Positions 1 to 46,336 are shown, numbered from the stretch's first letter. The stretch is DNA of 64,000 bases from Kiritimatiellia bacterium (GCA_017520845.1 JAFXEU010000005.1:12660-76659); one strand, 5' to 3'. The notes: a model not told the origin generated them from the sequence alone. Numbers and translations: made by a program.

Positions 1-33
1 GAAAATCCCGAGGCTGACGCGAGGCTTAAACGC

Positions 34-2412: not shown

Positions 2413-2435
2413 ACTTTATCGATAGAAAGGTCGTT

Positions 2436-3338
2436 ATGAAAAAGGGGTTTACTTTAGTTGAGATTCTGGTCGTCATCGGCATCATCGGGCTTATTATGGC
2501 CTCGCTTATTTATTTCTTCGGCAGCACCGAGTCCGCACGCTCGGCCGAGTGTCTCGTCAATATGAAGAATCTCGCCAATGCCGTTCAGGACGCGAGAGCC
2601 TCGACGGGATCGGTCATGCGCTATCCGCTTGCAGGATCGCAGGAGGGCCGCAAAACGAATTACGGAGAGCGAGACAACTTTGTCGAATATCCCGGGTGGA
2701 TCAGCTGGAATTCCCAGGGTGCATACAGAACAAAGCCCCGTGAACACATTTCGAGTTCCTCGTGGCTGACGTCCGCTTATTGCCAGGACGAAGAAACGCG
2801 CGAGTATTGCATTACAAACGGAGCGCTTTACAGGTATGTCAAGAATTACAAGACTTACCTCTGTCCGGGACACGTTAAAAAAATGCCGAACGACCAGCGT
2901 CCGGCGTGGAGTTACGTGATGAACGGCCGTTTCGGATACGATCATTCCGAGGGTGCTTATGAAACGGCTCCGTCCGATGATCATCCCGGCCTTGATATCG
3001 ATTCCGAGGCGTCTAGGCTGGCCCATAAGACGCTTCTTTTCGCCGAACTTCAGTGGGAGGATTATACTGAAAACAAACCTGATTTTTCTGCCGGTACCGG
3101 TTTCAGGAACGACTGTACGCTTCAGTACAACGATGAAGACGGCGGCGAAATGATCGGTTTCAACCACAAGGACGGCAAGGACATCGTAGCTCATATCGTA
3201 TTTGCCGACGGGCATGTCGATAAAATCGTTTATCCGAAGAAGGGGCTAAGCGCCAACGAGCTGAAGAAGTTGACCGAGTTCCTCTGCACCGGTACGGATT
3301 ATGAAATCCGCGACGGCTCCGTCAAAGAGATTGATTAA
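2436..3338 (+). CDS. Prepilin-type N-terminal cleavage/methylation domain protein (type II secretion pseudopilin-like, DUF1559/H-X9-DG-like C-terminus)
   Basis: The N-terminus MKKGFTLVEILVVIGIIGLIMA is a classic prepilin leader plus hydrophobic helix (G|FTLVE). It is followed by ECLVNMKNLANAVQ and the C-terminal HIVFADGHVDKI motif typical of the PVC pseudopilin family. An RBS-like GAAAGG lies upstream. Confidence 0.85.
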   Translation: MKKGFTLVEILVVIGIIGLIMASLIYFFGSTESARSAECLVNMKNLANAVQDARASTGSVMRYPLAGSQEGRKTNYGERDNFVEYPGWISWNSQGAYRTKPREHISSSSWLTSAYCQDEETREYCITNGALYRYVKNYKTYLCPGHVKKMPNDQRPAWSYVMNGRFGYDHSEGAYETAPSDDHPGLDIDSEASRLAHKTLLFAELQWEDYTENKPDFSAGTGFRNDCTLQYNDEDGGEMIGFNHKDGKDIVAHIVFADGHVDKIVYPKKGLSANELKKLTEFLCTGTDYEIRDGSVKEID

Positions 3339-15417: not shown

Positions 15418-15491
15418 GCGGGCGTAGCTCAATGGCAGAGCTCCAGCCTTCCAAGCTGGCTACGAGGGTTCGATTCCCTTCGCCCGCTCCA
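15418..15491 (+). tRNA. tRNA-Gly (anticodon TCC)
   Basis: Cloverleaf folded by eye: acceptor GCGGGCG/CGCCCGC, anticodon stem CCAGC/GCTGG with loop CTTCCAA, T-loop TTCGATT, encoded CCA. Confidence 0.9.
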
Positions 15492-15504
15492 TAAGGCAGG
15501 GGAT

Positions 15505-15590
15505 GCCAGAGTGGCGTAATGGCAGCCGCAGCAGACTCAAAATCTGCCGTACGTGAGTACGTGAGGGTTCGAGTCCCTCCTCTGGCACCA
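15505..15590 (+). tRNA. tRNA-Leu (anticodon CAA)
   Basis: Acceptor GCCAGAG/CTCTGGC, anticodon stem GCAGA/TCTGC with loop CTCAAAA, long variable arm, T-loop TTCGAGT, encoded CCA. Confidence 0.9.
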
Positions 15591-15615
15591 ATGTTCGAGC
15601 AAGTGATCTGAGACT

Positions 15616-15705
<90 letters not shown>

Positions 15706-18641: not shown

Positions 18642-19547
18642 ATGGCGCTTGACGTAAAAGAACTGATGGCCAAGGTGGGGAGGATCCGCTTCCTCACCGA
18701 CAGACTCATCGATGATGAGCTGAGCGGCAATTATCATTCGATGTTCAAGGGGCAGGGGGTTGAATTTGATGAAGTGCGCCCCTACGAACCGGGAGACGAC
18801 GTACGTTCCATCGACTGGAACGTTACCGCGAGAACGGGTCAGCCGTATATAAAACGCTACAAGGAAGAGCGGGAACTCACGATATTTTTTCTGGTCGACG
18901 TTTCGGGCTCTTTGAGTTACGGCAGCCGCGGAAGGTCCAAGGCGGATCTGGCCGCCGAGGTTTCGGCGCTTTTGGCGCTCACCGCGATCCGCAATCAGGA
19001 TAAGGTCGGGCTTGTGCTTTTTTCCGACAGGATTTTAAAATACGTCCCTCCGCGGAAAGGGCGCGACAGCGTCATGCGTCTGGCGCGCGAGGTTCTGGCG
19101 GCGGGCGACGGAGCGCAGGGCGGTACGGATATGGTTGAGGCGCTTAAGTTCTTCAACGGTATCCGCAAACGCCGCGCGGTGGTTTTTCTGGTAAGCGATT
19201 TTATCCTTCCTTCATCCTGCCCGCGCGATGAATTCGAGAAGATCGTCCGCGCTACCGCGGGTCGCCACGACATGATTTCCATCTGCGTTTCCGATCCGGC
19301 GGAAACGGAAATGCCCGACGTCGGATTGGTTGAGCTTGAAGATCCCGAAACGGGCGAGATAACGATAGCCGATACGTCCAGCGCCTCCGTGAGAAAGTCG
19401 TTTTCGGATGCGGCCGCCAGGGAGAAATCGGATATCGAGCGATTATTCGTAAAATCGGCGGTCGATTCCATTTCGCTTTCCACCGATAAGCCTTATATCG
19501 ACGAGGTGAGAAAGCTGTTCAGGCGTCGCGCCTATAAGAGGAGATGA
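18642..19547 (+). CDS. DUF58 family protein (VWA-like, MoxR partner)
   Basis: FDEVRPYEPGDDVRSIDWNVTARTG is the DUF58 signature. It is followed by a VWA-like DVSGS motif and sits immediately after moxR. Confidence 0.85.
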   Translation: MALDVKELMAKVGRIRFLTDRLIDDELSGNYHSMFKGQGVEFDEVRPYEPGDDVRSIDWNVTARTGQPYIKRYKEERELTIFFLVDVSGSLSYGSRGRSKADLAAEVSALLALTAIRNQDKVGLVLFSDRILKYVPPRKGRDSVMRLAREVLAAGDGAQGGTDMVEALKFFNGIRKRRAVVFLVSDFILPSSCPRDEFEKIVRATAGRHDMISICVSDPAETEMPDVGLVELEDPETGEITIADTSSASVRKSFSDAAAREKSDIERLFVKSAVDSISLSTDKPYIDEVRKLFRRRAYKRR

Positions 19548-20449
19548 CGATGTTTAACTCTCTTGTTCTTGCGGCATCGCTTTTTACGATTTCCAACAAC
19601 GGCGTCGACGTCACGCTTTCCTCCGAATGCGATGTCATCGATCCCGCTAAAAGCGTGTTCGTCGATCTGAAAATAGTCTCTCCCGGCGACGTCGAGGTCG
19701 TAGAGCCTGATTTGTCAGTGAGGGCCCGCGGCTTTTCCTCCGTCGAAAACGTCGCAGACGAGCCGTATGTAAACGATGAAGGCCGGCGAGTTGTCCGTTC
19801 GCAGTGGCGACTCGTTCCCGAGCCTTGCGCGAAGGAGTATAAGATCGCCCCGTTTGCGGTTAAAACAAAGTCCGGGTCTTCTTTCGTCGCAGGCCCCGTG
19901 TATTTTAAAAATCCCCCCGCCCGCGCCGACGTTTCCGGGGAGATGCGGATTAATCCTCAGAAAGACCCGCCGCCGTTCAGCTGGAAGCTTGTCGGATGGT
20001 ATGCGCTCATCGCTTTAGGTCTTCTCGCGGCCGTTGCGCTTGCGTGGCTTCTGATCCGATATGTCTTAAGGCGGGTTAAAGAGCATAAAATGACTCCTGT
20101 CGAAAGGGCATGGGTCGAGCTTGAAAGACTTATTAAACGTAATCTGCCCCAGGCGGGAAAATTCAAGGATTTTTATGTCGAACTTACTTTGGTTGTCAGG
20201 CGCTATATTCAACGCAAGCACGGTCTTAAAGCTCCGCATCTGACGACCGAGGAGTTTTTTGCCGAGGTTGAGAAGGTGCCGTCTTTTCCTAAAAACGCGA
20301 TTCCCGGTCTTATGGAGTTTCTCAACGCCGCCGACATGATTAAGTTTGCGGGGGTAAAGGCTACTCTTGAGTTGGCCGATGAGGCCGCCGAATCCGCGAG
20401 GGTGTACATTGTTTCCGACGAGTCTTTGACGAAGGGAGGAGGAAAATGA
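19544..20449 (+). CDS. Bat-operon membrane protein (BatD-like N-terminal domain + TM + DUF4381-like C-terminus)
   Basis: Single central TM helix WYALIALGLLAAVALAWLLI. The C-terminal helical region (AWVELERL...FYVELTLVVRRYIQRK...TTEEF) resembles DUF4381. ATGA overlaps on both sides. Confidence 0.55.
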   Translation: MTMFNSLVLAASLFTISNNGVDVTLSSECDVIDPAKSVFVDLKIVSPGDVEVVEPDLSVRARGFSSVENVADEPYVNDEGRRVVRSQWRLVPEPCAKEYKIAPFAVKTKSGSSFVAGPVYFKNPPARADVSGEMRINPQKDPPPFSWKLVGWYALIALGLLAAVALAWLLIRYVLRRVKEHKMTPVERAWVELERLIKRNLPQAGKFKDFYVELTLVVRRYIQRKHGLKAPHLTTEEFFAEVEKVPSFPKNAIPGLMEFLNAADMIKFAGVKATLELADEAAESARVYIVSDESLTKGGGK

Positions 20450-21450
20450 CTTTCGCATATCCGTATGCGTTTCTTCTCGCTCTCCCGCTCGCTTTCGCCG
20501 CGTGGAGGATGATGCGCCGCTCGCGCGGCAGAGGGGTCCGGTTTTCCGCCGTTTCCAGAGTGAGCGTGAAGTCGTCCGGATGGCGCGTCATAGCCGCGAA
20601 GGTTGCGCCTTATGTCGCGGTTTTAGGGCTTGCGCTTCTTGTAGTCGCGGCGGCGCGTCCGAGAGAGCCTTTCGGGAAAAGCGGCAGAAGTGTCGAGTCT
20701 ATCGCGATCGCGATGGTTGTCGACGTGTCCGGCTCGATGCGTGCGCCCGATATGAGTTCCAGGTATTCCAGAGAGGTCACCCGATTGGATGTCGTTAAAA
20801 AGGCTTTTGCGGAATTTGTAAAAAAGCGTCCCGACGATCTGATATCGCTCGTCACTTTCGGGACATACGCCTCGGCGCGTACGCCGCTGACATCAGACCA
20901 TGAAACGCTTCTCAATGTGTTGAAGGGCGTTGAAATTCCAAGAGGCAGCGACGAGGCTGAGACGGCGATCGGCGATGGACTTTCAGTCGCGCTTTTGAGG
21001 CTTAAGGACGCGAAGATGAAATCGAAAATCGTGATTCTTCTTTCCGACGGCGTAAGCAATATCGGCTCGGCACAGGGCGGCGTCGATCCGGAAACGGCGG
21101 CGGCGGCGGCGAAAAAGATGGGGATTAAGGTATATACGATAGGTGTCGGCGCCAACTCCAGAGCGGCTATGGATCCTTTCGGTTTCGGTATGATGATGGG
21201 CGGGACCCGTTTCGACGAACGTCAGCTTAAGAATATCGCCGCGACAACCTCGGGGATGTATTTTTCCGTAAATGATCAGACCGGGCTTGAACGGGCCATG
21301 AAGGATATCGACGAGCTTGAAACCACAAAAGTTGAAGTCGAGGAATGGACGCGGTGGGTTGAATATTTCCCCACGCTTCTCGCGCTCGGCGTTTCGCTGA
21401 CGGTTTTGGCGTCTCTCCTTTCGATGCTTGCCGTGCGCCGCATGTGGTAA
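20446..21450 (+). CDS. batA: VWA domain protein, BatA-like
   Basis: BatA-type N-terminus (FAYPYAFLLALPLAFAAW), MIDAS DVSGSM, a VWA fold with LLSDGVSN, and a C-terminal TM anchor. Confidence 0.85.
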   Translation: MTFAYPYAFLLALPLAFAAWRMMRRSRGRGVRFSAVSRVSVKSSGWRVIAAKVAPYVAVLGLALLVVAAARPREPFGKSGRSVESIAIAMVVDVSGSMRAPDMSSRYSREVTRLDVVKKAFAEFVKKRPDDLISLVTFGTYASARTPLTSDHETLLNVLKGVEIPRGSDEAETAIGDGLSVALLRLKDAKMKSKIVILLSDGVSNIGSAQGGVDPETAAAAAKKMGIKVYTIGVGANSRAAMDPFGFGMMMGGTRFDERQLKNIAATTSGMYFSVNDQTGLERAMKDIDELETTKVEVEEWTRWVEYFPTLLALGVSLTVLASLLSMLAVRRMW

Positions 21451-21737
21451 TCCGCCTGAATTTTGAGCGAGAACAATATTTATGAGGCGGTAGAAATAAA
21501 GAAGAATTTACGTGGCTCCATGAAATGTCTCGGAATTTTGATTTTTTGTTAAGATATCCTTTGGGTAAAGAACTTGGGATTTGATTTTTGAGGGTCATTA
21601 TTGATAAAATTTTTTGTTATGGGTCACTATCTAGATGAAATGAAATATGCATTGCGAACCTGATTAGGAGATAGCAAGCCAAGTCGGTTTGCCTTAATTG
21701 ATTTCTGTAATGCGTGATTCAAAAACGGAGCAGTATT

Positions 21738-24700
21738 ATGCGCAGCATAGTTCGAGGGGTTGTCGCTTTGGTCGCGGCATTTTGCATCATTAATGCGGTT
21801 AAAGCCGCGCCGACGATAGTCAGCCCGGCTGACTACTCAGCTGTAGCGACATTAACACCTACAATGAAGGGGTATATATATGCTTCTGATTTTTTAAATA
21901 CTACTTCGCCGTATTTTAATGTTGCTAGTACTGATGAAAGTCCGAATGAAAGACGCGATGGGTATTTAAATGAGTATTTTTATAGGAACTCTGTTCCAGT
22001 GACTTTGTCGTGGTCGGGAACTACAGGTATATGCACAATTAAGGTGTGGCGTACTAAAAAAGATTCAGAATCTAAGCCGAGTTTTTCAACAACGACATCG
22101 GGATCGTCAATTCAATTTTATAATCCTGAAATTGGCAGGAACTATACTTGGAAGGTAATAGATTCGAGCGGTAATTCCGCTACTGGTCATTTCTACACAG
22201 AATCTACCGCTCCTCGTATTATTCGAGGTCGTAGAGACGATCAGACTGAAGGAGCTGATTGCTCAAATGGTCGTGATATTGGCGGATGGCGTACAAGCGA
22301 TGGTACGAAAGTCGTTAAACAAGGTTTGATTTATAGATCGCAGCAGCTTGAGTGGTGTTCTGCAGGGGGTGGCGACGGTATATATGAGACGCTTTCAATG
22401 CTTTACGATACTTTAGGCATCAGACTTGATCTTGATCTTCGTACTATAACAAATGTAAAGTATTTTGAGGATTGGAAGGCTGCTTGGAATGATAATAAAC
22501 CGTTTGATGATTATTTGAAAAAGTCAGGTGTCGGTCCTAATGTTGTTCGCTTTGTCATTGAAAACGAAACTCTTGGCTTAGGACCTTCATCTAACCCTCG
22601 TAAAATAGACGGTAAGTCAGGAATAAAGTTTCCTGATCATAAGTATTTCGTTGAATCAATGAGTACTTCCGATAAAATTGATGGAACAACTACAAAATAT
22701 ACACAAACTGCCGATCAAAACAAAATTGCTGTTTGGGTTGCGTTCAATAGACTTTATCAGTCGGTTGTTGTGGATAAAGAGCCTGCGATTTTCCATTGCT
22801 CTCATGGTAAAGATAGAACCGGTACTTTAGCATTGGTGCTTCATGGTCTATTAGGTGTGTCCGTAGATGATGCTAAAAGAGATTACGCAACCGCCTGGTT
22901 CTGTAACCAGGATACAACAATGACATTTTCTAGTATTAACAGCTTGATTACAAGTTTAAAGGGGTATGATTCCGGGAATAATTTCCAAAAGGGTTGCGAG
23001 GCTTATTTGAAAGAGTGTGCAACGAAAGCAAGCGATTCTTCCGGCGCTACAAAGATTGCCGCTTTTAAAACTGCAATGCTTGAAGACATCGAAGCGTCAG
23101 ACGGAGATGAGGTCGCGCCTGAGCCTGAAGAAGATACATTTACCTATAAAAATTATTATTGGCGTCGTTATGCTGGAGGTGGAACTTGGTCTTCGGGTAC
23201 GGGATATTGGTATAAAGATCCCTCGGATGATGCCAAAAAATATGCAGGAGGGGATTATCCTGATTCTTATGATGTCTGTGCATATCTTATGCCTACAAAA
23301 TCTTTGCCATATGCAACTCCCGCTGCCGGTAAATATAAATTAGGAAAATTAATTATTGATGCTAATGGCGTTTCGGGTGATGATCATATTGCTACATCTA
23401 CTTTGCAGCCCTATTTTTCTAATGAAGGACATTCTGTAAGTGATCGTTCCATTATTGAACTTAGAAGTGGAGTTTGCGAATTTGAAAATATGGATATTTA
23501 CCTTACTGTGTGGGGTAAAACCAAATATGATAGTGCAAGTTCCAGAACTTCCGTTTTTAACGGAACGGCATCTGTCGATGTTTGGGCCAATGCGACTTTG
23601 AGAGTATCTGATTTTATATCAGTAAGTGCTTCTAAAACTTATTTAAAATTCCCTTCTGATAATTGTGCAAATGCACGTTTTGAGGCTTTTGAACATGGTG
23701 ATACGGATTATCCTTACAACAGTATAGGCTGGTTTACAGGCGGATTGGTCGGCACCAAGCAATATATCAAGGTTCAAGGCGCATATCCTCTTAAATTTTC
23801 TGCTTCAGGCAAGACGAGCGGTGTAGCAGGTTCGCTTGGTCTTGAGTTTGAATTGGGTGCTAATAATAAAACTACGACAGCAGCGATGCTTCAAGTTACG
23901 GGGTCATTAAATATAAATGCTGGATCAACAATTACTGTTAATGCTGGCGGTAAGGGCGCTGGTACATATAAGTTAGTTTCAGCAGGAACGCTGAATGATT
24001 ATGCGAATCTTGATTTACGATCTAATTATACTGTTACAAATTGTAAATCCGGGTATTATGGTACTATTGTAAAATCAGGAAACAATATTAATTTGACAAT
24101 CCAAGAAGGAACGCCTCCCGCTGAAGACGAAGGTCTAATTGATATAGAGAGTGATGGCGATTGGGGGTATCGCCTAAATATTGGTAATGAGATTGTTCTC
24201 GCTTTTACCAATCATACAAAATCGGTTAATTGGCAAGTTCCCTCGAAGCTCGAGAATGTTCAGTTCCTCGTAGTCGGCGGCGGCGGTGGTGGCGGCGCCG
24301 ACTCTAATAACGGTAATACTCATGCTGGTGCCGGCGGCGGTGGCGGCGGCGTTGTTACGGGATTGGTAGACTTCGCCGAAAACTCCGTTGTTACTATTAC
24401 TGTTGGTGCGGGTGGTAATGGAGGTGTCCGCGCCACCCAAGGCGGTACAAACAATAAGTATGGTGCCGCTTTCTCGGGCGAGGCCAGTTCTATTAATGTT
24501 GACGGAGCCGAGTATGTATGGGCTGCCGGCGGCGGCGGTGATAATGGCGCTGATGTATCGACAAATGCATCAAAGACCAAGGGTAATGTCGGTAATGACG
24601 GAGGGTCAAGCGCAGGTTCTCGCCCAGGTCAGACCGGCCGTGGAGCTGTTATTGCGCCTCGTGTCGCTTCGGTATCAGATATAAAGTATGCCGATACGTC

Positions 24701-27700
24701 GTTTGGTCGTCAGGGCGGTGCCGGTTATTATGTTACATCTGCGGATGGTTCGAATACATTTTACGGCTATTTCTCCGCGGCGGGCGGCGGCGGCGGCGCT
24801 ACGCAGGACGGTGGATCCGCGGTTGATTATACGAATGCGGGTAATGGCGGCGAAGGTTTGATGTCTTCGATTACCGGTCAAGCTGTTGTTTATGGTTCCG
24901 GCGGCGGTGGTGCTACTTTGAACGGCACCAACGGCGGTAAGGGCGGCACGGGTGCCGGCGACGGCAATACGGCAGACGTCGTCAATGGTACTGCCAGTAT
25001 GGATGCGCTCCCGAATCAGGGCGGCGGCGGCGGCGGCAGTGCGCGCGCTATAAACACGAACAGCAGCGGCGTAGGTGTCGGCGGTAACGGCGGCTCGGGT
25101 ATTGTTGTTTTGCGCTATGTCGATCCTGATTATTCGGATTCTCTGATCAATCCTACCGAGTATGGTGCAGCAGATTCTGCGGCATCGACTTATACGTGGA
25201 TTGGGTATACGGGACCTTGGATGTATACGACCAATTGGGCGGCTACAGCAAGCGGAACATACGGAGTTCCCAATAACGGAACTTACGCGACGGCGGACTT
25301 CCCCGCGACGCTCGCGAATGCGTTTACTTGTACGCTTAACCAGAATGTTTCGGTCAATAAGGCTGAATTTAATTCGCCTAATATGACATTCGTTTTGGAT
25401 AATGCGCTTTTAACCCTTAAAGGTAAGGTCGATAGCTATGCAGCGTGCGACTTCGGTGATGGTGAAAACGATAATTCCACCATTGAATTGAGAGGCGCTA
25501 ACGCTGGAATTGTTTCAGACACTAAAGAAGTTCGTCTCAATTTTGGCTATCGCCATGATGAAGCGACTCCGACTGGAACTGTAACCGTTCGCTTCGTTGT
25601 TCCTGAAACCGGTTGGGAGAGCGATGCGAGACTTAAAGCGACCGGTACAGATTCTAAGGTTGTTTTTTATGCCAACTCTAAGCTCGAGATTGATGCGACG
25701 GCTCTTGGTGTTCCGGCCGAAGGTACGACAAAAACCGTTTATCTCGCTTCGGGTACGGGAGATGATGGCGTTTATGTTTTATCTGGCGAAACTAATATCG
25801 TTTGCGCGGCAGGCGCCAAGGGCTCTATAAAGATTGAAAACAAGAAGCTCGTTCTTACGGTTGAGCCCGATCCCGAGGGAACACAGCCGCCGCCGGTGGG
25901 CGATTGGAGCGAAATACCCTCGCTTTCGACGAATATTTTCAATGCCGGCACGTCGATAACCGTATTCAACGGCATGTGCGAGAATAGAATGGTTACGGCT
26001 AACTACACGGCTGCCGACATTGCCGCGCTCAAGCCCGGAACTTATACCTTCCGCGCGACGGCGAGCGCGGATGGTGCCGAAAGTCTCGTTTACGAGATCG
26101 ACTTCTGGGTGCTCCCCGCCGATTTCAGCGCGGAGAATACGATCGTCTGCTACGGCGATTCGATCACTTACGGTGCAGGGGCTGTTAAAATTACAGTTGA
26201 CGGGCGTGAAAACTATTTTGAAGGGCGTATGAAGGGCCAGACGATTGAAGGTAATTATCCTTATTATCTCGCGGGCATGATCAACAGTAAGTACAATGTT
26301 ATCAATCAAGGTACGCCCCAGCAGTGGAGCGATACGATTCTCGCCTGGGTGGGCGGAGTTGATACGGTTTCGCGTCTGCCTGTTACGCTGCCGCAAGGGG
26401 GCGGCGATGTTTGGGCTCCTACAAACATTGTCTTTACGACCGATAATCCGTATGGTCCAGAGGGCGGCTTGCATTATGTGCGTACAATCGACTATCCGCC
26501 CTACACGTCTAACGGAGACAGAAATAAAAACCATCCTCTCAATTACTTCGCCGGTCTTGCAACGACTATGTATCCGGCGTTCGAGGCGTATCCAGAGCCG
26601 TCGGGTATAAACGGTTCGATGACGGGTTGGTTCGGCAATAAGCGTGTACGTATTCATGGCGTTAAGGACGCTAATTTATACTTTAGCGGTGATAATCCTA
26701 ATGGTGTATATTGTACAGATCATAGATGGCAACGCGTCAGTACAGAAGGTAACCAGACGATCATTCCCGCCGGAACTCCGTTTGTTCCCGATACGGCGAT
26801 CGTGTATAAGGATGCGATTTCGGTAATCTATACCGGTACGAACGACGAGATGGGTAAAGAAACATATAATAACAATAAAGATCCTGATATCGATCACACG
26901 ACATACATAAATATGATCGCCGATACGGTAGCCAAGATTCCGTCGGGCCGTTATGTCGTCGTATCGACGCTTTCGATAAATCAACGCTCCGACGAGAGCG
27001 AGGCCGCATTCGCGGAGAAGTTCGGTGAGCATCACCTCAACCTTCATAAGATGATGGAGCGTTACGGCGTCTTGGTCGCGAACAAGCTCGGCATTACCGG
27101 TGTTAAGACCTGGGACGCTCTTGACGGCAGCGGTCTTATGAATACCGGCGACTCAGTTCATCCGAACGAGAAGGGCTATCAGGTTATCGCCTATTTCCTC
27201 AAACAGAAGCTTATTGATCTTGAATACATCGAAGGCGAGCGTGATGATGATATCGTATTCGGCGATGGTAATACGGATGATCCGGGCGAAGATACACCTC
27301 CTGTCGAGAGTGCTGTTGTCACAAACGCGATGCCTGAAGCTTCGTGGGGTTATACCGTCAGCGGTCTCGGTGATAACCGCAATGAAGTCGCCGTTGTCTT
27401 TACTAATGAAAACGCGAATATGACTTGGACCGTTCCTCAGAACCTCAAGAATGTCCAGTTCCTCGTTGTCGGTGGTGGCGGCGGCGGCGGTGCGGTTAAC
27501 GGCGACACGCGCACGGCAGGTGCCGGTGGCGGCGGTGGCGGCGTTGTTACCGGCTTGGTAGCCTCTATAGAAAAGGATTCGACTATAACTATTAATGTAG
27601 GTAAAGGCGGTGTAGCGGGCCAAAAGGGTGTAGCAGGGAACGGTAATAATTGGGCGGCTGCGAGTGGTGGAGATAGTATCATAACTTATGGCGATAAACT

Positions 27701-28835
27701 TACGGTAACAGCGTACGGCGGCGGTGGCGATGATGGTGCTTCCAGCGCGACGGCTGCTGTAGGTAACGCTGGTAAGACGGGTGGTTCTAGCGCTGGTTCT
27801 CGCCCTGGGTGTGATACAGAAACGCAACCTAAGGCGAAAGATAGTTGTGTTGTCTCTGGAGATGGATTGATAATCTGTTCGGAAGTGTTCGGTAACGCCG
27901 GTGGTGCAGGCGCTAATGTAGTAGGTCCGTCTGAGCAATATTGGGCGGCTGGTGGTGGCGGCGGCGCTACTGAAGCTGGGTTCGCGGCTACTTCGTGGAT
28001 AGACTGGGATGATTTTAATACTACGCCTGTAGGTAAAGGTATTCACGGCGGTGATGGTGGCGCCGGCTTAATAAGTGATATTACAGGCGAGACATTAGTT
28101 TATGGCTCGGGCGGCGGCGGCGGCTCAGGCGGCGCAAATGAATTGTTAGGCGGTAATGGCGGTATAGGCGCAGGCTCGGGTAAAACCGCCGCGACAACTG
28201 CGACATCTACAGCTTCGATAAATGCATTAGCTAACCAAGGCGGCGGCGGTGGCGGCGGTTATAATGAGGGCGGCTCCGGCGGCTCGGGCATCGTGGTTTT
28301 CCGTTATACCGTCGCGCCTCAATCGCCGTCGGTTGACGGTACGGATTATGCTGCCGACGAGGTGTTCGATCACGCCAAGGTTTTAAAGCCCGTCAAGTAT
28401 CCCGGCAATCCTGAAGTTACGACCAACACGGTTGACGGCGTTGAGGTTATTACCGTTACATTCGGCGGTCTCTCCGACGAAGTTCCTTCGTGCTATAATG
28501 TCACCAAGGTTGCTGACGATAACGGTTATCAGATTGTTCTTGCGATCAAGGACGAGTTCAAAAATCCCGTTATCGCCAACTCTGCGGATAACGCGACTCA
28601 CGCGATCTGGGTCGAGAACGGCAAGGTTAAGATTCATCTTGAGGGAACTCACAATAAGCTTCATTACTCGCTTATGACGTCGACATCGCTTGAGGCGGGC
28701 GTATTTTGGACGACGGCGAACGGCAAATGGTCCGACAACGCCAACTTCGAGTTCGGCGACGGCGACAAAAAGCTTGACGACGTTCGCTTCTTCAAGGTGG
28801 GAGAAGTCTCCGACGAGCCGATCGTAACAGAATAA
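21738..28835 (+). CDS. Giant exported multidomain protein (2365 aa): signal peptide, CX5R phosphatase domain, beta-rich spacers, two glycine-rich modules, SGNH hydrolase domain
   Basis: ATG 21738 lies 7 nt after GGAG (21727-21730). The signal peptide is MRSIVRGVVALVAAFCIINAVKA|AP. The ORF is uninterrupted for 7.1 kb and is followed by a strong terminator. Sub-features give the domain motifs. The ORF-track start (GTG 21714) is an alternative. Confidence 0.85.
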   Translation: MRSIVRGVVALVAAFCIINAVKAAPTIVSPADYSAVATLTPTMKGYIYASDFLNTTSPYFNVASTDESPNERRDGYLNEYFYRNSVPVTLSWSGTTGICTIKVWRTKKDSESKPSFSTTTSGSSIQFYNPEIGRNYTWKVIDSSGNSATGHFYTESTAPRIIRGRRDDQTEGADCSNGRDIGGWRTSDGTKVVKQGLIYRSQQLEWCSAGGGDGIYETLSMLYDTLGIRLDLDLRTITNVKYFEDWKAAWNDNKPFDDYLKKSGVGPNVVRFVIENETLGLGPSSNPRKIDGKSGIKFPDHKYFVESMSTSDKIDGTTTKYTQTADQNKIAVWVAFNRLYQSVVVDKEPAIFHCSHGKDRTGTLALVLHGLLGVSVDDAKRDYATAWFCNQDTTMTFSSINSLITSLKGYDSGNNFQKGCEAYLKECATKASDSSGATKIAAFKTAMLEDIEASDGDEVAPEPEEDTFTYKNYYWRRYAGGGTWSSGTGYWYKDPSDDAKKYAGGDYPDSYDVCAYLMPTKSLPYATPAAGKYKLGKLIIDANGVSGDDHIATSTLQPYFSNEGHSVSDRSIIELRSGVCEFENMDIYLTVWGKTKYDSASSRTSVFNGTASVDVWANATLRVSDFISVSASKTYLKFPSDNCANARFEAFEHGDTDYPYNSIGWFTGGLVGTKQYIKVQGAYPLKFSASGKTSGVAGSLGLEFELGANNKTTTAAMLQVTGSLNINAGSTITVNAGGKGAGTYKLVSAGTLNDYANLDLRSNYTVTNCKSGYYGTIVKSGNNINLTIQEGTPPAEDEGLIDIESDGDWGYRLNIGNEIVLAFTNHTKSVNWQVPSKLENVQFLVVGGGGGGGADSNNGNTHAGAGGGGGGVVTGLVDFAENSVVTITVGAGGNGGVRATQGGTNNKYGAAFSGEASSINVDGAEYVWAAGGGGDNGADVSTNASKTKGNVGNDGGSSAGSRPGQTGRGAVIAPRVASVSDIKYADTSFGRQGGAGYYVTSADGSNTFYGYFSAAGGGGGATQDGGSAVDYTNAGNGGEGLMSSITGQAVVYGSGGGGATLNGTNGGKGGTGAGDGNTADVVNGTASMDALPNQGGGGGGSARAINTNSSGVGVGGNGGSGIVVLRYVDPDYSDSLINPTEYGAADSAASTYTWIGYTGPWMYTTNWAATASGTYGVPNNGTYATADFPATLANAFTCTLNQNVSVNKAEFNSPNMTFVLDNALLTLKGKVDSYAACDFGDGENDNSTIELRGANAGIVSDTKEVRLNFGYRHDEATPTGTVTVRFVVPETGWESDARLKATGTDSKVVFYANSKLEIDATALGVPAEGTTKTVYLASGTGDDGVYVLSGETNIVCAAGAKGSIKIENKKLVLTVEPDPEGTQPPPVGDWSEIPSLSTNIFNAGTSITVFNGMCENRMVTANYTAADIAALKPGTYTFRATASADGAESLVYEIDFWVLPADFSAENTIVCYGDSITYGAGAVKITVDGRENYFEGRMKGQTIEGNYPYYLAGMINSKYNVINQGTPQQWSDTILAWVGGVDTVSRLPVTLPQGGGDVWAPTNIVFTTDNPYGPEGGLHYVRTIDYPPYTSNGDRNKNHPLNYFAGLATTMYPAFEAYPEPSGINGSMTGWFGNKRVRIHGVKDANLYFSGDNPNGVYCTDHRWQRVSTEGNQTIIPAGTPFVPDTAIVYKDAISVIYTGTNDEMGKETYNNNKDPDIDHTTYINMIADTVAKIPSGRYVVVSTLSINQRSDESEAAFAEKFGEHHLNLHKMMERYGVLVANKLGITGVKTWDALDGSGLMNTGDSVHPNEKGYQVIAYFLKQKLIDLEYIEGERDDDIVFGDGNTDDPGEDTPPVESAVVTNAMPEASWGYTVSGLGDNRNEVAVVFTNENANMTWTVPQNLKNVQFLVVGGGGGGGAVNGDTRTAGAGGGGGGVVTGLVASIEKDSTITINVGKGGVAGQKGVAGNGNNWAAASGGDSIITYGDKLTVTAYGGGGDDGASSATAAVGNAGKTGGSSAGSRPGCDTETQPKAKDSCVVSGDGLIICSEVFGNAGGAGANVVGPSEQYWAAGGGGGATEAGFAATSWIDWDDFNTTPVGKGIHGGDGGAGLISDITGETLVYGSGGGGGSGGANELLGGNGGIGAGSGKTAATTATSTASINALANQGGGGGGGYNEGGSGGSGIVVFRYTVAPQSPSVDGTDYAADEVFDHAKVLKPVKYPGNPEVTTNTVDGVEVITVTFGGLSDEVPSCYNVTKVADDNGYQIVLAIKDEFKNPVIANSADNATHAIWVENGKVKIHLEGTHNKLHYSLMTSTSLEAGVFWTTANGKWSDNANFEFGDGDKKLDDVRFFKVGEVSDEPIVTE
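22206..23093 (+). other. Protein-tyrosine-phosphatase-family domain (Y_phosphatase3-like) within the giant protein
   Basis: NGRDIGGW...GLIYRSQQL followed by the P-loop FHCSHGKDRTGTLALVL (HCX5R, with the Cys codon at 22797-22799). Confidence 0.75.
24159..25121 (+). repeat. Glycine-rich module, copy 1 (~320 aa) of an intragenic duplication
   Basis: WGYRLNIGNEIVLAFTNHTKSVNWQVPSKLENVQFLVVGGGGGGGA...AGAGGGGGGVVTGLV...GSSAGSRPG...VVYGSGGGG...ALPNQGGGGGG...GGNGGSGIVVLRYV. Confidence 0.85.
26136..27218 (+). other. SGNH/GDSL hydrolase domain within the giant protein
   Basis: Block I IVCYGDSITYG (Ser codon at 26160-26162), block III VIYTGTNDE, block V GDSVHPNEKGYQVIA (DxxH). The spacing between blocks I and III is unusually long at ~225 aa. 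Confidence 0.75.
27342..28310 (+). repeat. Glycine-rich module, copy 2 of the intragenic duplication
   Basis: WGYTVSGLGDNRNEVAVVFTNENANMTWTVPQNLKNVQFLVVGGGGGGGA...AGAGGGGGGVVTGLV...GSSAGSRPG...LVYGSGGGG...ALANQGGGGGG...GGSGGSGIVVFRYT. The motif order is the same as in copy 1. Confidence 0.85.
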
Positions 28836-28860
28836 GAAAGATATTAAACTGCTAAAAAAG

Positions 28861-28895
28861 ACGAGCTTCCTAAAAAGGGGGGCTCGTTTTTTTTT
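28861..28895 (+). terminator. Rho-independent terminator of the giant gene
   Basis: 10-bp stem ACGAGCTTCC/GGGGGCTCGT (with two G-U pairs), 7-nt loop, followed by T9. Confidence 0.85.
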
Positions 28896-29007
28896 AGTGC
28901 TTCAACGTCCTTTTAGACAGTTGTAGTCTTGTGCCGTTTGCCAGAGTAAACGAAGATGAAATTACGTTTTGCTGAAATTTCGTAGATCGGAACGGACTAT
29001 GGGTGAA

Positions 29008-32194: not shown

Positions 32195-32445
32195 AAGCTC
32201 ATTTTTGGTCATAGGTATTGCATTGGATGGGCTAAAAGTATACCTTAGCCACCAATAATGCCGCCAAGAAGCCCGCCGAGAAGGGCGCCCCCGAGAGTTA
32301 TCCAGGCGTTGTCATCATCGCAGTGATGGTGTTCTACACGGTGAATAGTGCGAACTGGAGCGTGATGCTTATTTTTCTGTTGCTTTTATCTTGCGCTTTA
32401 AATCCCCGGTTCGTAAACTTTGGTCACTTCTTTTTCACAATAATA

Positions 32446-32454
32446 TGGTATAAT
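32446..32454 (+). promoter_or_regulatory. Extended -10 element TGGTATAAT upstream of valS
   Basis: Exact TGGTATAAT 57 nt upstream of the valS ATG. Confidence 0.5.
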
Positions 32455-32511
32455 ATTCAAGATTTTCTCAAAAAGAGATTTTTTCAAAAACGATAAAGAA
32501 GTTCAAAGACA

Positions 32512-35214
32512 ATGATGGACAAGCATTACGACGCTAAGTCAGCCGAAGCAAAGTGGTATCCGCTTTGGGAGAAGAACGGTTATTTTCATCAGGAGCCTCG
32601 CGACGGCGAGAGCTATTCCGTAGTAATTCCGCCGCCGAACGTGACGGGTATTCTTCACATGGGTCATGCGCTTAACCAGACGATTCAGGATATTCTCGTC
32701 AGATGGCGCCGTATGCAGGGTAAGAATACGCTTTGGCTCCCCGGTACCGATCACGCCGGCATTGCGACTCAGAACGTCGTCGAGAAGGCGCTTCGCAAGG
32801 AGGGTAAGCGTCGTCAGGATCTCGGGCGCGAGGCTTTCGTCGAGCGTGTCTGGGAGTGGAAGAAGCAGTACGGCGGAACGATCGTTCATCAGCAGCGTAT
32901 GCTCGGCAATTCAACCGACTGGTCGCGCGAGCGCTTTACGCTCGACGAGGGTTGCTCGAAGGCTGTCGCGAAGGTCTTTACTCAGCTTTACAACGAGGGC
33001 CTCATCTACAAGGGCAACTACATCGTAAACTGGTGTCCCCGTTGCGGTACGGCTCTCGCGAATGACGAAGTCGAGCACGAGGCGAATCACGGCCACCTCT
33101 GGTATGTCCGCTATCCCGTCGCGGGCAGCGCCCTCGGCGCGAAGGGCGAGCTTAACAAGGACTATATCTGCGTTGCGACGACGCGTCCTGAAACGCTTCC
33201 CGGCGATACGGCGGTCGCGGTCAATCCGAAGGACGAGCGTTTCGCCGCGATTGTCGGCAAGAACGTCATTCTTCCTCTCACGGGCCGCGAGATTCCCGTT
33301 CTCGCCGACGATTATGTCGAGAAGGAGTTCGGTACCGGTATCGTTAAGATTACGCCCGCACATGATCCTAATGACTTCCTCGTAGGTAAGCGTCATGGTC
33401 TCGAAGAGATCAACATCATGACCGACGACGGCCACATGAACGAGCTCGCGGGCGCGAAGTATGTCGGCATGGACCGCTTTGAATGCCGTAAGGCGCTTGT
33501 TGCCGATCTCGAGGCTGAGGGCTATCTCGATCATATCGAAGATTACGACAATCAGGTCGGCCACTGCTACCGTTGTCATGAGGTCGTCGAGTCGCGTCTT
33601 TCGAAGCAGTGGTTCGTCAGGATGAAGCCGCTCGCCGAGCCCGCCATCGCGGCGGTCAAGTCGGGCGAGGTTAAGTTCGTTCCCGAGCGCTGGAGCAAGA
33701 TTTACTTCAACTGGATGGAGAACATTCAGGACTGGTGCATCTCGCGTCAGCTCTGGTGGGGGCATAGAATTCCTGCGTACACGCTTTGTGGGGAACGGGG
33801 AACGGGGAACGGGGAAGACGAGTTGGTGTTTGTTGCCGAGACCGCCGAGGAGGCGCTTGAGCAGGCGAAGGCCAAGACGGGCAACGCCGCTTTGACGCTC
33901 GCCGATCTCGAGCAGGATCCCGATGTTCTCGATACGTGGTTCAGCTCGTGGCTTTGGCCTTTCTCGACTCTCGGCTGGCCCGAGAAGACGCCCGATCTCG
34001 ATAAGTTCTATCCGACGAGCGATCTCGTAACCGCTCAGGATATCATTTTCTTCTGGGTTGCGCGCATGATGATGGCGGGCATTCACTTTATGGGTAAGCC
34101 TCCGTTTAAGAATATCGTCATTCACGGTATCGTTCGTGCGGCTGACGGCTCGAAGATGTCGAAGTCGAAGGGTAACTCGCTCGATCCGCTGGAGCTTATC
34201 GACGCGTATTCCGCCGACGCTCTCAGATTCTCTATCGCGCTCATTACTTCGCTTGATTGCGATACGAAGGTCAATAAGGAGAAGTTTGAAATCGGCCGCA
34301 ATTTCTGCACGAAGATCTGGAACGCCGCGCGCTTTATGGAGATGCAGGAGGCGAATATCGCTGAGCGCGTCTCGATGGCCGACATTAAGGATTTGACGAG
34401 CGATGAGAAGCACATTCTCTGGGCGACGGACATCGCTTGCAAGAAGCTCGGCGAAATTCTCGAGAACTACCGCATTCAGGACGGTGCGCTCGCGGTTTAC
34501 GATTTCTTCTGGACGCAAATCTGCGACTGGTATGTAGAGTATGCGAAGGACGCTCCCGATAAGGTTCGTGCGTTCGCCGTATTGCGCGACGTATTCTTTA
34601 AGGCGCTTAAGCTCCTTCATCCGTATATGCCGTTCATTACTGAAGAGGTCGCTCATCAGCTCGGCTATCTCAAGGACGGCGAGACTATTATGCTCGCGGA
34701 ATTCCCGAAGGGTTATTCTGACGAAGAGAAATCGGCATGGGGACTTAGCGAAGAGGTTTACGAATTCGTCAACGCCAAGCGCGAGGCGATTACGGCTCTT
34801 CGCGCGCTCCGCGCGGAGTACAAGGTTTCGCCTGCAGTTTTCGTTAAAGCGACGATCGCGACCGATGATAACCGCGCCGCGCTTGAAGTTGAGTCGCTTA
34901 AAAAGGCGATGCGCGCCGAGGCGATTGACTTTACGGCCGCTGGTGCAGATCTTCCGATGCCCTCAAAGCTTACGAAATTCGGTACGGTCTATCTTAGTCT
35001 CGACGGTCTCGTCGACAAGACCGCCGAATCGAAGCGCATCGCGGCTGAACTCGCCAAGCTCGCAGGCTTCATCAAGGCGTTCGAGGCCAAGCTTTCGAAC
35101 GAGAACTTTGTCGCTCATGCTCCCGAGGCCGTTGTCGCCGACGCCCGCAAGAAACTCGCCGACAACAAGGAGAAGGTCGCGCAGCTCGAAAAGCTCGCTA
35201 AGCTCTTCGCGTAA
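32512..35214 (+). CDS. valS: Valyl-tRNA synthetase
   Basis: HIGH motif PPPNVTGILHMGHAL, KMSKS motif GSKMSKSKGN, the CP1 editing domain (TTRPETLPGDTAVAVNP) and a C-terminal coiled coil. Confidence 0.95.
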   Translation: MMDKHYDAKSAEAKWYPLWEKNGYFHQEPRDGESYSVVIPPPNVTGILHMGHALNQTIQDILVRWRRMQGKNTLWLPGTDHAGIATQNVVEKALRKEGKRRQDLGREAFVERVWEWKKQYGGTIVHQQRMLGNSTDWSRERFTLDEGCSKAVAKVFTQLYNEGLIYKGNYIVNWCPRCGTALANDEVEHEANHGHLWYVRYPVAGSALGAKGELNKDYICVATTRPETLPGDTAVAVNPKDERFAAIVGKNVILPLTGREIPVLADDYVEKEFGTGIVKITPAHDPNDFLVGKRHGLEEINIMTDDGHMNELAGAKYVGMDRFECRKALVADLEAEGYLDHIEDYDNQVGHCYRCHEVVESRLSKQWFVRMKPLAEPAIAAVKSGEVKFVPERWSKIYFNWMENIQDWCISRQLWWGHRIPAYTLCGERGTGNGEDELVFVAETAEEALEQAKAKTGNAALTLADLEQDPDVLDTWFSSWLWPFSTLGWPEKTPDLDKFYPTSDLVTAQDIIFFWVARMMMAGIHFMGKPPFKNIVIHGIVRAADGSKMSKSKGNSLDPLELIDAYSADALRFSIALITSLDCDTKVNKEKFEIGRNFCTKIWNAARFMEMQEANIAERVSMADIKDLTSDEKHILWATDIACKKLGEILENYRIQDGALAVYDFFWTQICDWYVEYAKDAPDKVRAFAVLRDVFFKALKLLHPYMPFITEEVAHQLGYLKDGETIMLAEFPKGYSDEEKSAWGLSEEVYEFVNAKREAITALRALRAEYKVSPAVFVKATIATDDNRAALEVESLKKAMRAEAIDFTAAGADLPMPSKLTKFGTVYLSLDGLVDKTAESKRIAAELAKLAGFIKAFEAKLSNENFVAHAPEAVVADARKKLADNKEKVAQLEKLAKLFA
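33790..33817 (+). repeat. Heptanucleotide tandem repeat (GGGGAAC)x3 + GGGGAAG inside valS; a canonical G4-forming motif
   Basis: Read directly as ggggaacggggaacggggaacggggaag. It encodes GERGTGNGE in a variable loop after WWGHRIPAY. Confidence 0.9.
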
Positions 35215-46170: not shown

Positions 46171-46255
46171 GCACCCGTGGTGAAATTGGCATACACGCCA
46201 GATTCAGGTTCTGGTGCCGCAAGGTGTGTGGGTTCAAATCCCACCGGGTGCACCA
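46171..46255 (+). tRNA. tRNA-Leu (anticodon CAG)
   Basis: Acceptor GCACCCG/CGGGTGC, anticodon stem CCAGA/TCTGG with loop TTCAGGT, long variable arm, T-loop TTCAAAT, encoded CCA. Confidence 0.9.
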
Positions 46256-46261
46256 AACTTT

Positions 46262-46336
46262 GGCCCCTTCGTCTATCGGCTAGGACATCTGGTTCTCATC
46301 CAGGAAAGAGGAGTTCGACTCTCCTAGGGGCTGCCA
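46262..46336 (+). tRNA. tRNA-Glu (anticodon CTC)
   Basis: GGCCCCTTCGTCTA... is a typical Glu 5' end. The anticodon loop is TTCTCAT, the T-loop is TTCGACT, and CCA is encoded. Confidence 0.88.

Follow-up and report, generated by a model that had tools for sequence, protein, structure and literature searches.

The 64,000-nucleotide (nt) stretch of Kiritimatiellia bacterium DNA analysed here (GCA_017520845.1, JAFXEU010000005.1:12660-76659; henceforth the window) carries, on its forward strand, a gene for a 2,365-amino acid (aa) protein in which a signal peptide, an MptpB-type phosphatase, an SGNH/GDSL esterase cassette and two homologous glycine-rich modules are strung together along beta-rich segments (Table 1). 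On balance, we lean towards the view that this is a Sec-exported, probably surface-displayed modular adhesin-enzyme fibre of ruminant-gut Kiritimatiellae, diversified by cassette recombination. The gene belongs to a multi-copy family of mosaic proteins, and at its own locus the entire N-terminal enzymatic head has been replaced between strains.

The phosphatase, which a first-pass annotation of the stretch had placed in the tyrosine phosphatase family, matches Pfam Y_phosphatase3 (PF13350) over aa 174-386 (83 bits, cut-off 22.2) and has a full P-loop, HCSHGKDRTG, at aa 353-362. This fits the signature HCXXGKDR[TA]G that defines the atypical lipid phosphatases (ALPs), in which catalysis falls to the Asp and substrate binding to the Lys (PMC3091653); the domain is of the MptpB type. 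Neither of the classical motifs of protein tyrosine phosphatases, WPD and KNRY, is found in the translation of aa 166-460, and a profile built from 12 phosphatase sequences retrieves from the PDB the structure 8dhi (E = 8.6e-20) and Mycobacterium tuberculosis MptpB/PtpB (1ywf, E = 3.7e-5). R179, D180, D233, R235, H353, C354, G357, K358, D359, R360 and G362 do not vary among 12 diverse relatives, and because the P-loop residues and the RDxGG and DxDLR motifs are unchanged among relatives sharing only 35-66% identity, the phosphatase is very likely active. A complete P-loop with catalytic Asp and substrate-binding Lys, but without WPD or KNRY, is likewise found in MptpB, Listeria Lmo1800 and the soil enzyme Pho16B, and MptpB and Pho16B also share a secretion signal with the window protein. 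However, known ALPs are single-domain proteins of ~250-350 aa, whereas here the ALP heads a multi-module protein, follows a fixed beta-rich domain, has many indels in the stretch that leads from the DLR motif to the P-loop, and is swapped as a cassette between alleles.

Ahead of the phosphatase, the N-terminus (MRSIVRGVVALVAAFCIINAVKA followed by AP) has, as read from the sequence, the features of a Sec signal peptide cleaved by signal peptidase I, in agreement with the export signal noted at first pass. This peptide together with the next motif, TIVSPADY, is kept across the family (S29 and P30 of the mature N-terminus being invariant). The N-terminal beta-rich domain (aa 33-165), initially taken for an Ig/FN3-like segment, has no Pfam or PDB match by sequence; its W92 and its motifs GRNYTW and GHF are conserved. 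The second half of this domain, together with the phosphatase, also occurs at 25-37% identity in rumen Firmicutes (loci L022-L037 and others), namely in large proteins of Ruminococcus, Erysipelotrichaceae and Bacilli metagenome-assembled genomes (MAGs) from the rumen, and extracellular ALP-type phosphatases may be widespread in this habitat.

What the first-pass annotation had described as duplicated poly-Gly modules are indeed duplicated, modules 1 and 2 being homologous over ~328 aa (aa 801-1129 versus 1865-2191), but they are copies of a catalogued domain, Pfam Gly_rich_2 (PF21722; 115.9 bits against a cut-off of 24.3, in two stretches), with the fold of phage tail-fibre and tail-tip receptor-binding domains and of the animal receptor ALK. 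An AlphaFold2 model of aa 1860-2365, with a predicted local distance difference test (pLDDT) of 78.5, finds with Foldseek the tail-tip protein of mycobacteriophage Bxb1 (9d93, E = 1.6e-7), a fibre of cyanophage Pam3 (7ypx, 5.1e-5) and the glycine-rich domains of ALK (7lir, 7nx3, 7nx4 and 7ls0, E = 2.6-5.9e-4), while 236 predicted viral proteins (BFVD) match at E <= 1e-3 (best 3e-15), the majority being tailed-phage proteins annotated as "glycine-rich domain-containing". In Pam3, the pair formed by a TNF-like and a glycine-rich domain has been assigned to receptor recognition; with its conserved Gly stem and hypervariable tip, it resembles S16 gp38 and ALK (PMC9608196). A similar division is visible among 121 full-length modules of the family: 60 of 333 alignment columns are at least 80% Gly, with an entropy of 0.2 bits as opposed to 2.2 bits elsewhere, and the variable stretches are rich in indels. 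Glycine motifs thus alternate with hypervariable loops as they do in the TNF-like plus polyglycine-II domains of phage tails (Pam3 gp24, Salmonella phage S16 gp38, the Bxb1 tail-tip). Unlike those of phage fibres, however, the window modules are internal, duplicated (one to six per family protein) and fused to enzymes. The extracellular ligand-binding glycine-rich domain of animal ALK/LTK also has GGGGGG-type motifs, as the window modules do, but these modules are bacterial, lack any kinase or EGF context and resemble ALK less than they resemble the phage domains. We also considered, and rejected, the protein as a phage tail fibre itself, as it has no phage context, no N-terminal helix for docking to baseplate or virion and no adjacent fibre chaperone.

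The SGNH domain proposed at first pass holds up on its catalytic blocks. G1473-D-S1475, G1700-T-N1702-D1703 and D1805-S-V-H1808 are invariant in eight sequences, down to 33% identity, block II probably lies in YNVINQG, and the cassette profile matches GDSL proteins in the PDB (best E = 6.9e-6). An exhaustive representative search with the same profile returned 1,500 library relatives, of which P0080 (35.1 bits) and P0096 (37.6) exceed the PF13472 cut-off of 32.9 over the matched stretch, and some of which also contain a Gly_rich_2, Y_phosphatase3 or CE4 polysaccharide deacetylase domain. A word-index protein search with the cassette alone returned nothing, although P0001 is 85% identical there, which we read as a limit of the index and not as absence. 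Blocks I, III and V are invariant as in the SGNH/GDSL carbohydrate esterases, and fusion to CE4 is seen in relatives; unlike in the usual SGNH esterases, a variable insertion of ~160 aa separates blocks II and III, the Pfam score is below threshold, and no close relative has a known substrate. The small beta-rich domain in front of the cassette (aa 1386-1462), also called Ig/FN3-like, has no sequence match.

The segments between these modules are more than the first-pass annotation made of them, at least in the case of the first "beta-rich spacer": it is all-beta (confident AlphaFold2 model with strands only; pLDDT 88, predicted template modelling score 0.88), and its weak Foldseek neighbours are almost all right-handed beta-helix proteins (ranks 1-18 of 50 and most of the remainder), among them Hap, pertactin, Ag43, IgA1 protease, tailspikes and pectate lyases. 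Based on the model, spacer 1 reads as a beta-helix-type stalk; the module recurs in family members, in some of them two or three times. Spacer 2 is probably a second stalk segment, its fold being suggested by aa 1290-1377, which weakly resemble the C-terminal part of spacer 1 (profile, i-E = 7.5e-4). The nearest, though weak, neighbours of the spacer 1 model are thus beta-helix adhesins (PfbA and the autotransporter passengers Hap, pertactin and Ag43), which are also comparable to the window protein in their giant size and extracytoplasmic signal; unlike the autotransporters, the protein has no C-terminal translocator barrel, and the Foldseek scores are non-significant. The C-terminal domain, in which most complete family members end and which closes the window protein with ...RFFKVGEVSDEPIVTE, models as small beta-sandwich units with weak FN3-like matches only (IFNAR1, E = 0.044), and may have an anchoring role. 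Sorting as an autotransporter, by the type IX secretion system (T9SS), by PEP-CTERM or as a lipoprotein was dismissed, no corresponding motif or match being present.

Comparisons within the family reveal that these modules have separate histories. The window protein shares 90% identity with P0002 in spacer 1 and 94% in spacer 2 but only 43% in the phosphatase, while P0002 and P0004 share 97% in the phosphatase and 46-48% in spacer 1; with P0013, the window protein is 93% identical in spacer 2 and 91% in the C-terminal domain as against 37% in the phosphatase. In general, spacer 2 shows 87-98% identity among proteins whose phosphatases share only 35-43%, and the module identity matrices are, on these alignments, incongruent between family proteins. 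The same is seen at the nucleotide level: the syntenic loci L002 and L003 are 97% identical to the window up to 21832 and 93% from 23124 onwards, whereas the 1.29 kb in between (the cassette of N-terminal beta-rich domain and phosphatase) cannot be aligned to it. A further locus, L009, from the yak-rectum MAG RGIG9840 (1-3101 versus window 18737-21838), is 94.5% identical and diverges after 21838. Three N-terminal heads are therefore found at one syntenic locus (window and L001; L002 and L003; L009), with the switch just after the signal peptide. In L001, the closest strain, the background identity to the window is 94-98%, the 5' 2.4 kb of the gene are 98.7-100% identical and the SGNH cassette (window 26254-27150) only 76-89%; in this pattern, the SGNH cassette looks like a patchwise replacement and the 5' 2.4 kb like a recently shared cassette. 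The 3' edge of the ~195-nt block of leader and signal peptide coincides with the cassette breakpoint, and in L004, a paralogue at another locus of a related species (housekeeping genes 79-85% identical), it is only this block and the part from spacer 2 through module 2 that reach ~90% nt identity to the window. The GC content at third codon positions (GC3) is 0.24-0.33 over aa 33-800, 0.44-0.69 in the rest of the gene and 0.62-0.70 in its neighbours. The alternative cassette of L002 has a low value, too (0.31), as if there were a cassette pool with its own composition.

Alleles at this locus have been replaced and the family is mosaic, with exchange between strains and paralogues over evolutionary time. 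It is known in general of recombining surface-protein families and of mosaic phage tail-fibre genes that they have many paralogues, incongruent modules and a conserved 5' block, all of which are found here. Unlike programmed variation systems, the locus lacks silent donor cassettes, invertase sites and inverted repeats: no inverted repeats occur in 21600-28900, the direct repeats within the gene are only GGN-codon runs and the two homologous modules 3.19 kb apart, and the 64-kb window contains neither other family fragments nor recombinase genes.

Family members have a conserved leader as well. The ~100-nt 5' leader common to the paralogues contains a hairpin, followed by a U-rich stretch. In 14 leaders, the upper stem of the hairpin is paired to 98%, as against 29-49% in slid controls, and four of the seven base pairs show compensatory changes; the lower stem comes from RNAalifold. 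A covariance model of the hairpin has a single match in the window (72 bits) and, among Kiritimatiellae loci, matches only upstream of family genes; the hairpin is present in L001-L005, L007-L011, L013, L015, L016, L019, L020, L085, L087, L089 and L090. The model also picks up independent copies in metagenome contigs, and an Rfam search of the leader gave no family. The hairpin may represent a novel RNA element, cis-regulatory or stabilising, and could serve in attenuation, in setting mRNA stability or as a protein-binding site. An extended -10 motif, TG(A/C)TAAAAT, at the same relative position in 11 of the 14 paralogue leaders suggests a promoter common to the family. A bulge-less variant of the hairpin was seen in L008 (2614-2673), L090 (1456-1515) and L085 (484-545), in the first two as a second copy ~300 nt upstream of the regular hairpin and in L085 as the sole forward-strand match; it also scores weakly on the opposite strand and might represent either a duplicate of the leader or a terminator that works in both directions.

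Far from being the one-off protein that it seemed at first pass, the window protein belongs to a family of at least 73 members: a whole-protein search returned 73 proteins, nearly all of 1,300-4,100 aa and most combining the phosphatase with Gly_rich_2, of which the few that carry names are called "tyrosine-protein phosphatase" and come from Kiritimatiellae MAGs. In a scan of one genome per GTDB species with the N-terminal alignment as query, the full N-terminal unit was found almost exclusively in Kiritimatiellae MAGs from the guts of yak and other ruminants, the exception being a 3-kb contig (L014) assigned to a Bacteroidales MAG. Genomes carry several copies (at least seven loci in MAG RGIG9427 and at least four in T1900045565), some of them in tandem, and head-to-tail pairs lie on single contigs in JAZOQU010000001.1 (L005 and L008) and JAZOQY010000036.1 (L010 and L017). 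The order of modules is polar: signal peptide, N-terminal beta-rich domain and phosphatase always come first, the C-terminal domain is last in most complete members, and the glycine-rich modules and enzyme cassettes vary, the latter comprising SGNH types, a SASA esterase (PF03629) and GH39 (PF01229). As the first-pass annotation had supposed, no characterised protein with this architecture emerged from literature searches, which also returned nothing relevant on 8DHI, on PF21722/Gly_rich_2 or on giant, surface or phosphatase proteins of Kiritimatiellae.

How the protein is exported beyond the inner membrane, anchored and oriented, and which ligands and substrates it meets, we infer as follows. 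The C-terminal beta domain would hold it at the cell, the stalk segments, of which at least spacer 1 would be a beta-helix, would keep the modules apart, and the two glycine-rich modules would bind a surface ligand via their hypervariable loops. The N-terminal phosphatase, acting as an MptpB-type phosphomonoesterase of broad specificity, would then remove phosphate from the bound polymer, and the SGNH enzyme, as an O-acyl (acetyl) esterase, its acyl decorations. We picture this polymer as a glycan or a component of cell envelopes that may stem from microbes, diet or host; a link to glycans is proposed because paralogues swap in SASA, GH39 and further SGNH cassettes and because SGNH relatives adjoin CE4 deacetylases. 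Homologous recombination among paralogues and strains would swap modules, so that head, tips and enzymes at the locus keep changing.

Several observations weigh against such an adhesin-enzyme fibre. Pfam, NCBIfam and the sequence itself reveal no autotransporter barrel, T9SS C-terminal domain, PEP-CTERM, LPXTG or lipobox, and as no signal for outer-membrane translocation or anchoring was recognised, surface retention is a guess. The beta-helix call depends on a Foldseek search of spacer 1 against the PDB with no significant match (best E = 0.077), and the SGNH cassette of the window protein scores 22.9 bits with Pfam PF00657, just under the cut-off of 23.6. The ALPs characterised so far have phosphoinositides and phosphoproteins as substrates rather than glycans (PMC3091653). 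Moreover, the neighbouring genes are housekeeping ones, with no adjacent glycan-utilisation or transport gene that would suggest foraging, and no member of the family has been experimentally characterised.

Given the resemblance of the binding modules to the receptor-binding tips of phages, it is conceivable, though we consider it unlikely, that the protein is an inter-microbial weapon or attachment device, whose phage-type modules recognise the envelopes of other bacteria and whose enzymes damage or remodel them, in the service of antagonism, predation or an epibiotic life, with an arms race against the targets driving cassette turnover. The hypervariable tips within a mosaic family and the CE4 deacetylases of relatives would suit this role, as would the PHROGs profiles that match the protein, phrog_2295 (a phage family, E = 8e-45, aa 1414-2197) and phrog_863 ("tail fiber assembly"). 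However, tblastn of the segment from the small beta-rich domain through the SGNH cassette to module 2 found no match among GenBank phages, and an IMG/VR pattern scan based on the SGNH alignment found no relatives, so the link to phages exists at the level of fold and profile only. The other cassettes of the family (GH39, SASA) look like glycan-foraging enzymes, and the absence of any toxin domain, immunity gene or dedicated secretion system in or beside the gene speaks against a weapon and equally against the toxin-like effector envisaged at first pass.

A second alternative, which strikes us as improbable, is that of a phosphate-scavenging exoenzyme, i.e., a phytase-like or organophosphate phosphatase at work in phosphate-rich feed residues, with the rest of the protein as a tether to particles. 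There is a precedent in a secreted soil ALP, a promiscuous phosphomonoesterase that hydrolyses phytate too (PMC6409689). The phosphatase is also the one constant enzymatic module of the family, it has a complete ALP signature, and its pairing with the N-terminal beta-rich domain recurs in secreted proteins of rumen Firmicutes. Scavenging leaves unexplained, however, why each protein should have one to six binding modules and extra esterase and glycosidase cassettes, or a genome at least seven paralogues with phosphatases only 35-45% identical, and it would be odd for a housekeeping scavenger that precisely the phosphatase cassette is replaced most rapidly.

A host-directed effector, which after docking would dephosphorylate phosphoinositides or phosphoproteins of host, protozoal or fungal cells in the manner of MptpB, seems very improbable to us. 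While the P-loop family includes MptpB and Listeria Lmo1800, both phosphoinositide phosphatases of pathogens, and in animals protein ligands are bound by glycine-rich domains of the ALK type, ALP substrates lie inside host cells, and the window protein has a Sec signal only and no delivery system into the eukaryotic cytosol; besides, its carriers are uncultured gut commensals known only as MAGs. Finally, an assembly chimera, pseudogene or prophage structural gene, which the very uneven GC3 along the gene and the phage-like modules might bring to mind, is scarcely credible in view of an intact reading frame with start, Shine-Dalgarno (SD) sequence and terminator, conserved catalytic residues, collinear full-length homologues with the same synteny on independent contigs, and flanks none of which is phage.

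The gene itself is sound. Its reading frame runs from the ATG at 21738 to the stop at 28835 without interruption, bearing out the 7.1-kb open reading frame of the first-pass annotation, whose call for a check of integrity is answered by collinear homologues of 2,348-2,374 aa, in the same synteny, on independent contigs from several samples; it is therefore not an assembly chimera. The frame is open from 21714 on the forward strand, but an in-frame GTG at that position was dismissed as the start, since conservation, the SD sequence and the family N-termini favour the ATG at 21738, eight bases after GGAG. The gene has its own promoter-like site, which is sigma-70-like and presumably acts as a promoter, as well as its own SD sequence and terminator, and is therefore monocistronic, as previously read. 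Upstream lie DnaG, MoxR and a DUF58/VWA/BatA set, downstream an HtpX-like protease, Tex and ValRS.

Table 1 Features of the giant modular gene and its leader (positions in the 64,000-nt window)
Feature	Position	Strand	Basis or remark
Promoter-like site: -35 TTGATT, 18-nt spacer, extended -10 TGATAAAAT (21602-21610)	21581..21610	+	Consensus scan
Leader and signal-peptide block common to paralogues	21638..21833	+	~90% nt identity to L004 paralogue; flanks unalignable
Hairpin in 5' untranslated region: lower stem 21663-21668/21693-21698, bulge 21669-21673, upper stem 21674-21680/21686-21692, loop 21681-21685	21663..21698	+	
SD sequence GGAG	21727..21730	+	Read from sequence; invariant among paralogue leaders
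Coding sequence, 2,365 aa and stop codon	21738..28835	+	Full-length collinear homologues P0001-P0004, P0006
Sec-type signal peptide, aa 1-23, predicted cleavage between VKA and AP	21738..21806	+	Sequence features
N-terminal beta-rich domain, aa 33-165	21834..22232	+	Always precedes phosphatase domain
MptpB-type ALP domain, aa 166-460	22233..23117	+	PF13350 match, P-loop aa 353-362
Spacer 1, all-beta domain, aa 461-800	23118..24137	+	AlphaFold2 model
Glycine-rich module 1, aa 801-1130	24138..25127	+	PF21722
Spacer 2, aa 1131-1385	25128..25892	+	Weak profile similarity to spacer 1
Small beta-rich domain, aa 1386-1462	25893..26123	+	Travels with SGNH cassette in relatives
SGNH/GDSL esterase cassette, aa 1463-1835	26124..27242	+	Invariant GDS, GxND, DxxH
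Glycine-rich module 2, aa 1860-2192	27315..28313	+	PF21722; AlphaFold2 model
C-terminal domain, aa 2193-2365, all-beta	28314..28832	+	AlphaFold2 model, strands only
Intrinsic terminator: A-run, GACGAGC...GCTCGTT stem, T9 run	28854..28896	+	Read from sequence; scan detects part

The surroundings differ between strains further downstream. In the window and in L001, Tex leads straight to ValRS, whereas L002 and L003 (20657-27047 versus window 32200-35214) carry a strain-specific island after Tex, with an S24 peptidase, a YgjP-like protein and a type I restriction-modification system (HsdR, HsdM). Elsewhere in the window there are two ordinary tRNA clusters, Gly(tcc)-Leu(caa)-Ser(gga) and Leu(cag)-Glu(ctc), at 15418-15705 and 46171-46336, and an Rfam scan of the whole 64 kb found tRNAs only.

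Each domain of the protein is of a known class, and giant modular surface proteins are known, too. What we did not find described is this architecture, nor the presence of several phage-type binding modules in one enzyme-bearing cellular protein, the allelic replacement of a head, or a family-specific leader hairpin. Going one step further, and only tentatively, we postulate a surface-variation system of a gut commensal of the Planctomycetes-Verrucomicrobia-Chlamydiae (PVC) group, where the block of promoter, hairpin and signal peptide would double as a shared regulatory unit and the 5' anchor for recombination, the hairpin would be a new family-specific cis-regulatory RNA, and heads, phage-derived tips and esterase cassettes would be shuffled among some ten paralogues and between strains. 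If this is true, a population would keep changing what it sticks to and digests, or would escape phages, IgA or grazers that recognise the fibre.

Kiritimatiellae are abundant in the guts of ruminants and other herbivores, and the family offers a testable handle on how they attach to and process their substrates. The clade carrying it is known here only from MAGs. It would place phage-type receptor-binding modules in cellular use beside an extracellular phosphatase of the MptpB type, a class that has so far been studied mainly as virulence factors. The enzyme domains, a phosphatase with possible phytase activity and an acetyl esterase, are also of practical interest for feed digestion, and the clean allelic replacement of cassettes, coupled with a conserved hairpin, makes these loci a natural system for the recombination-driven diversification of giant surface proteins.

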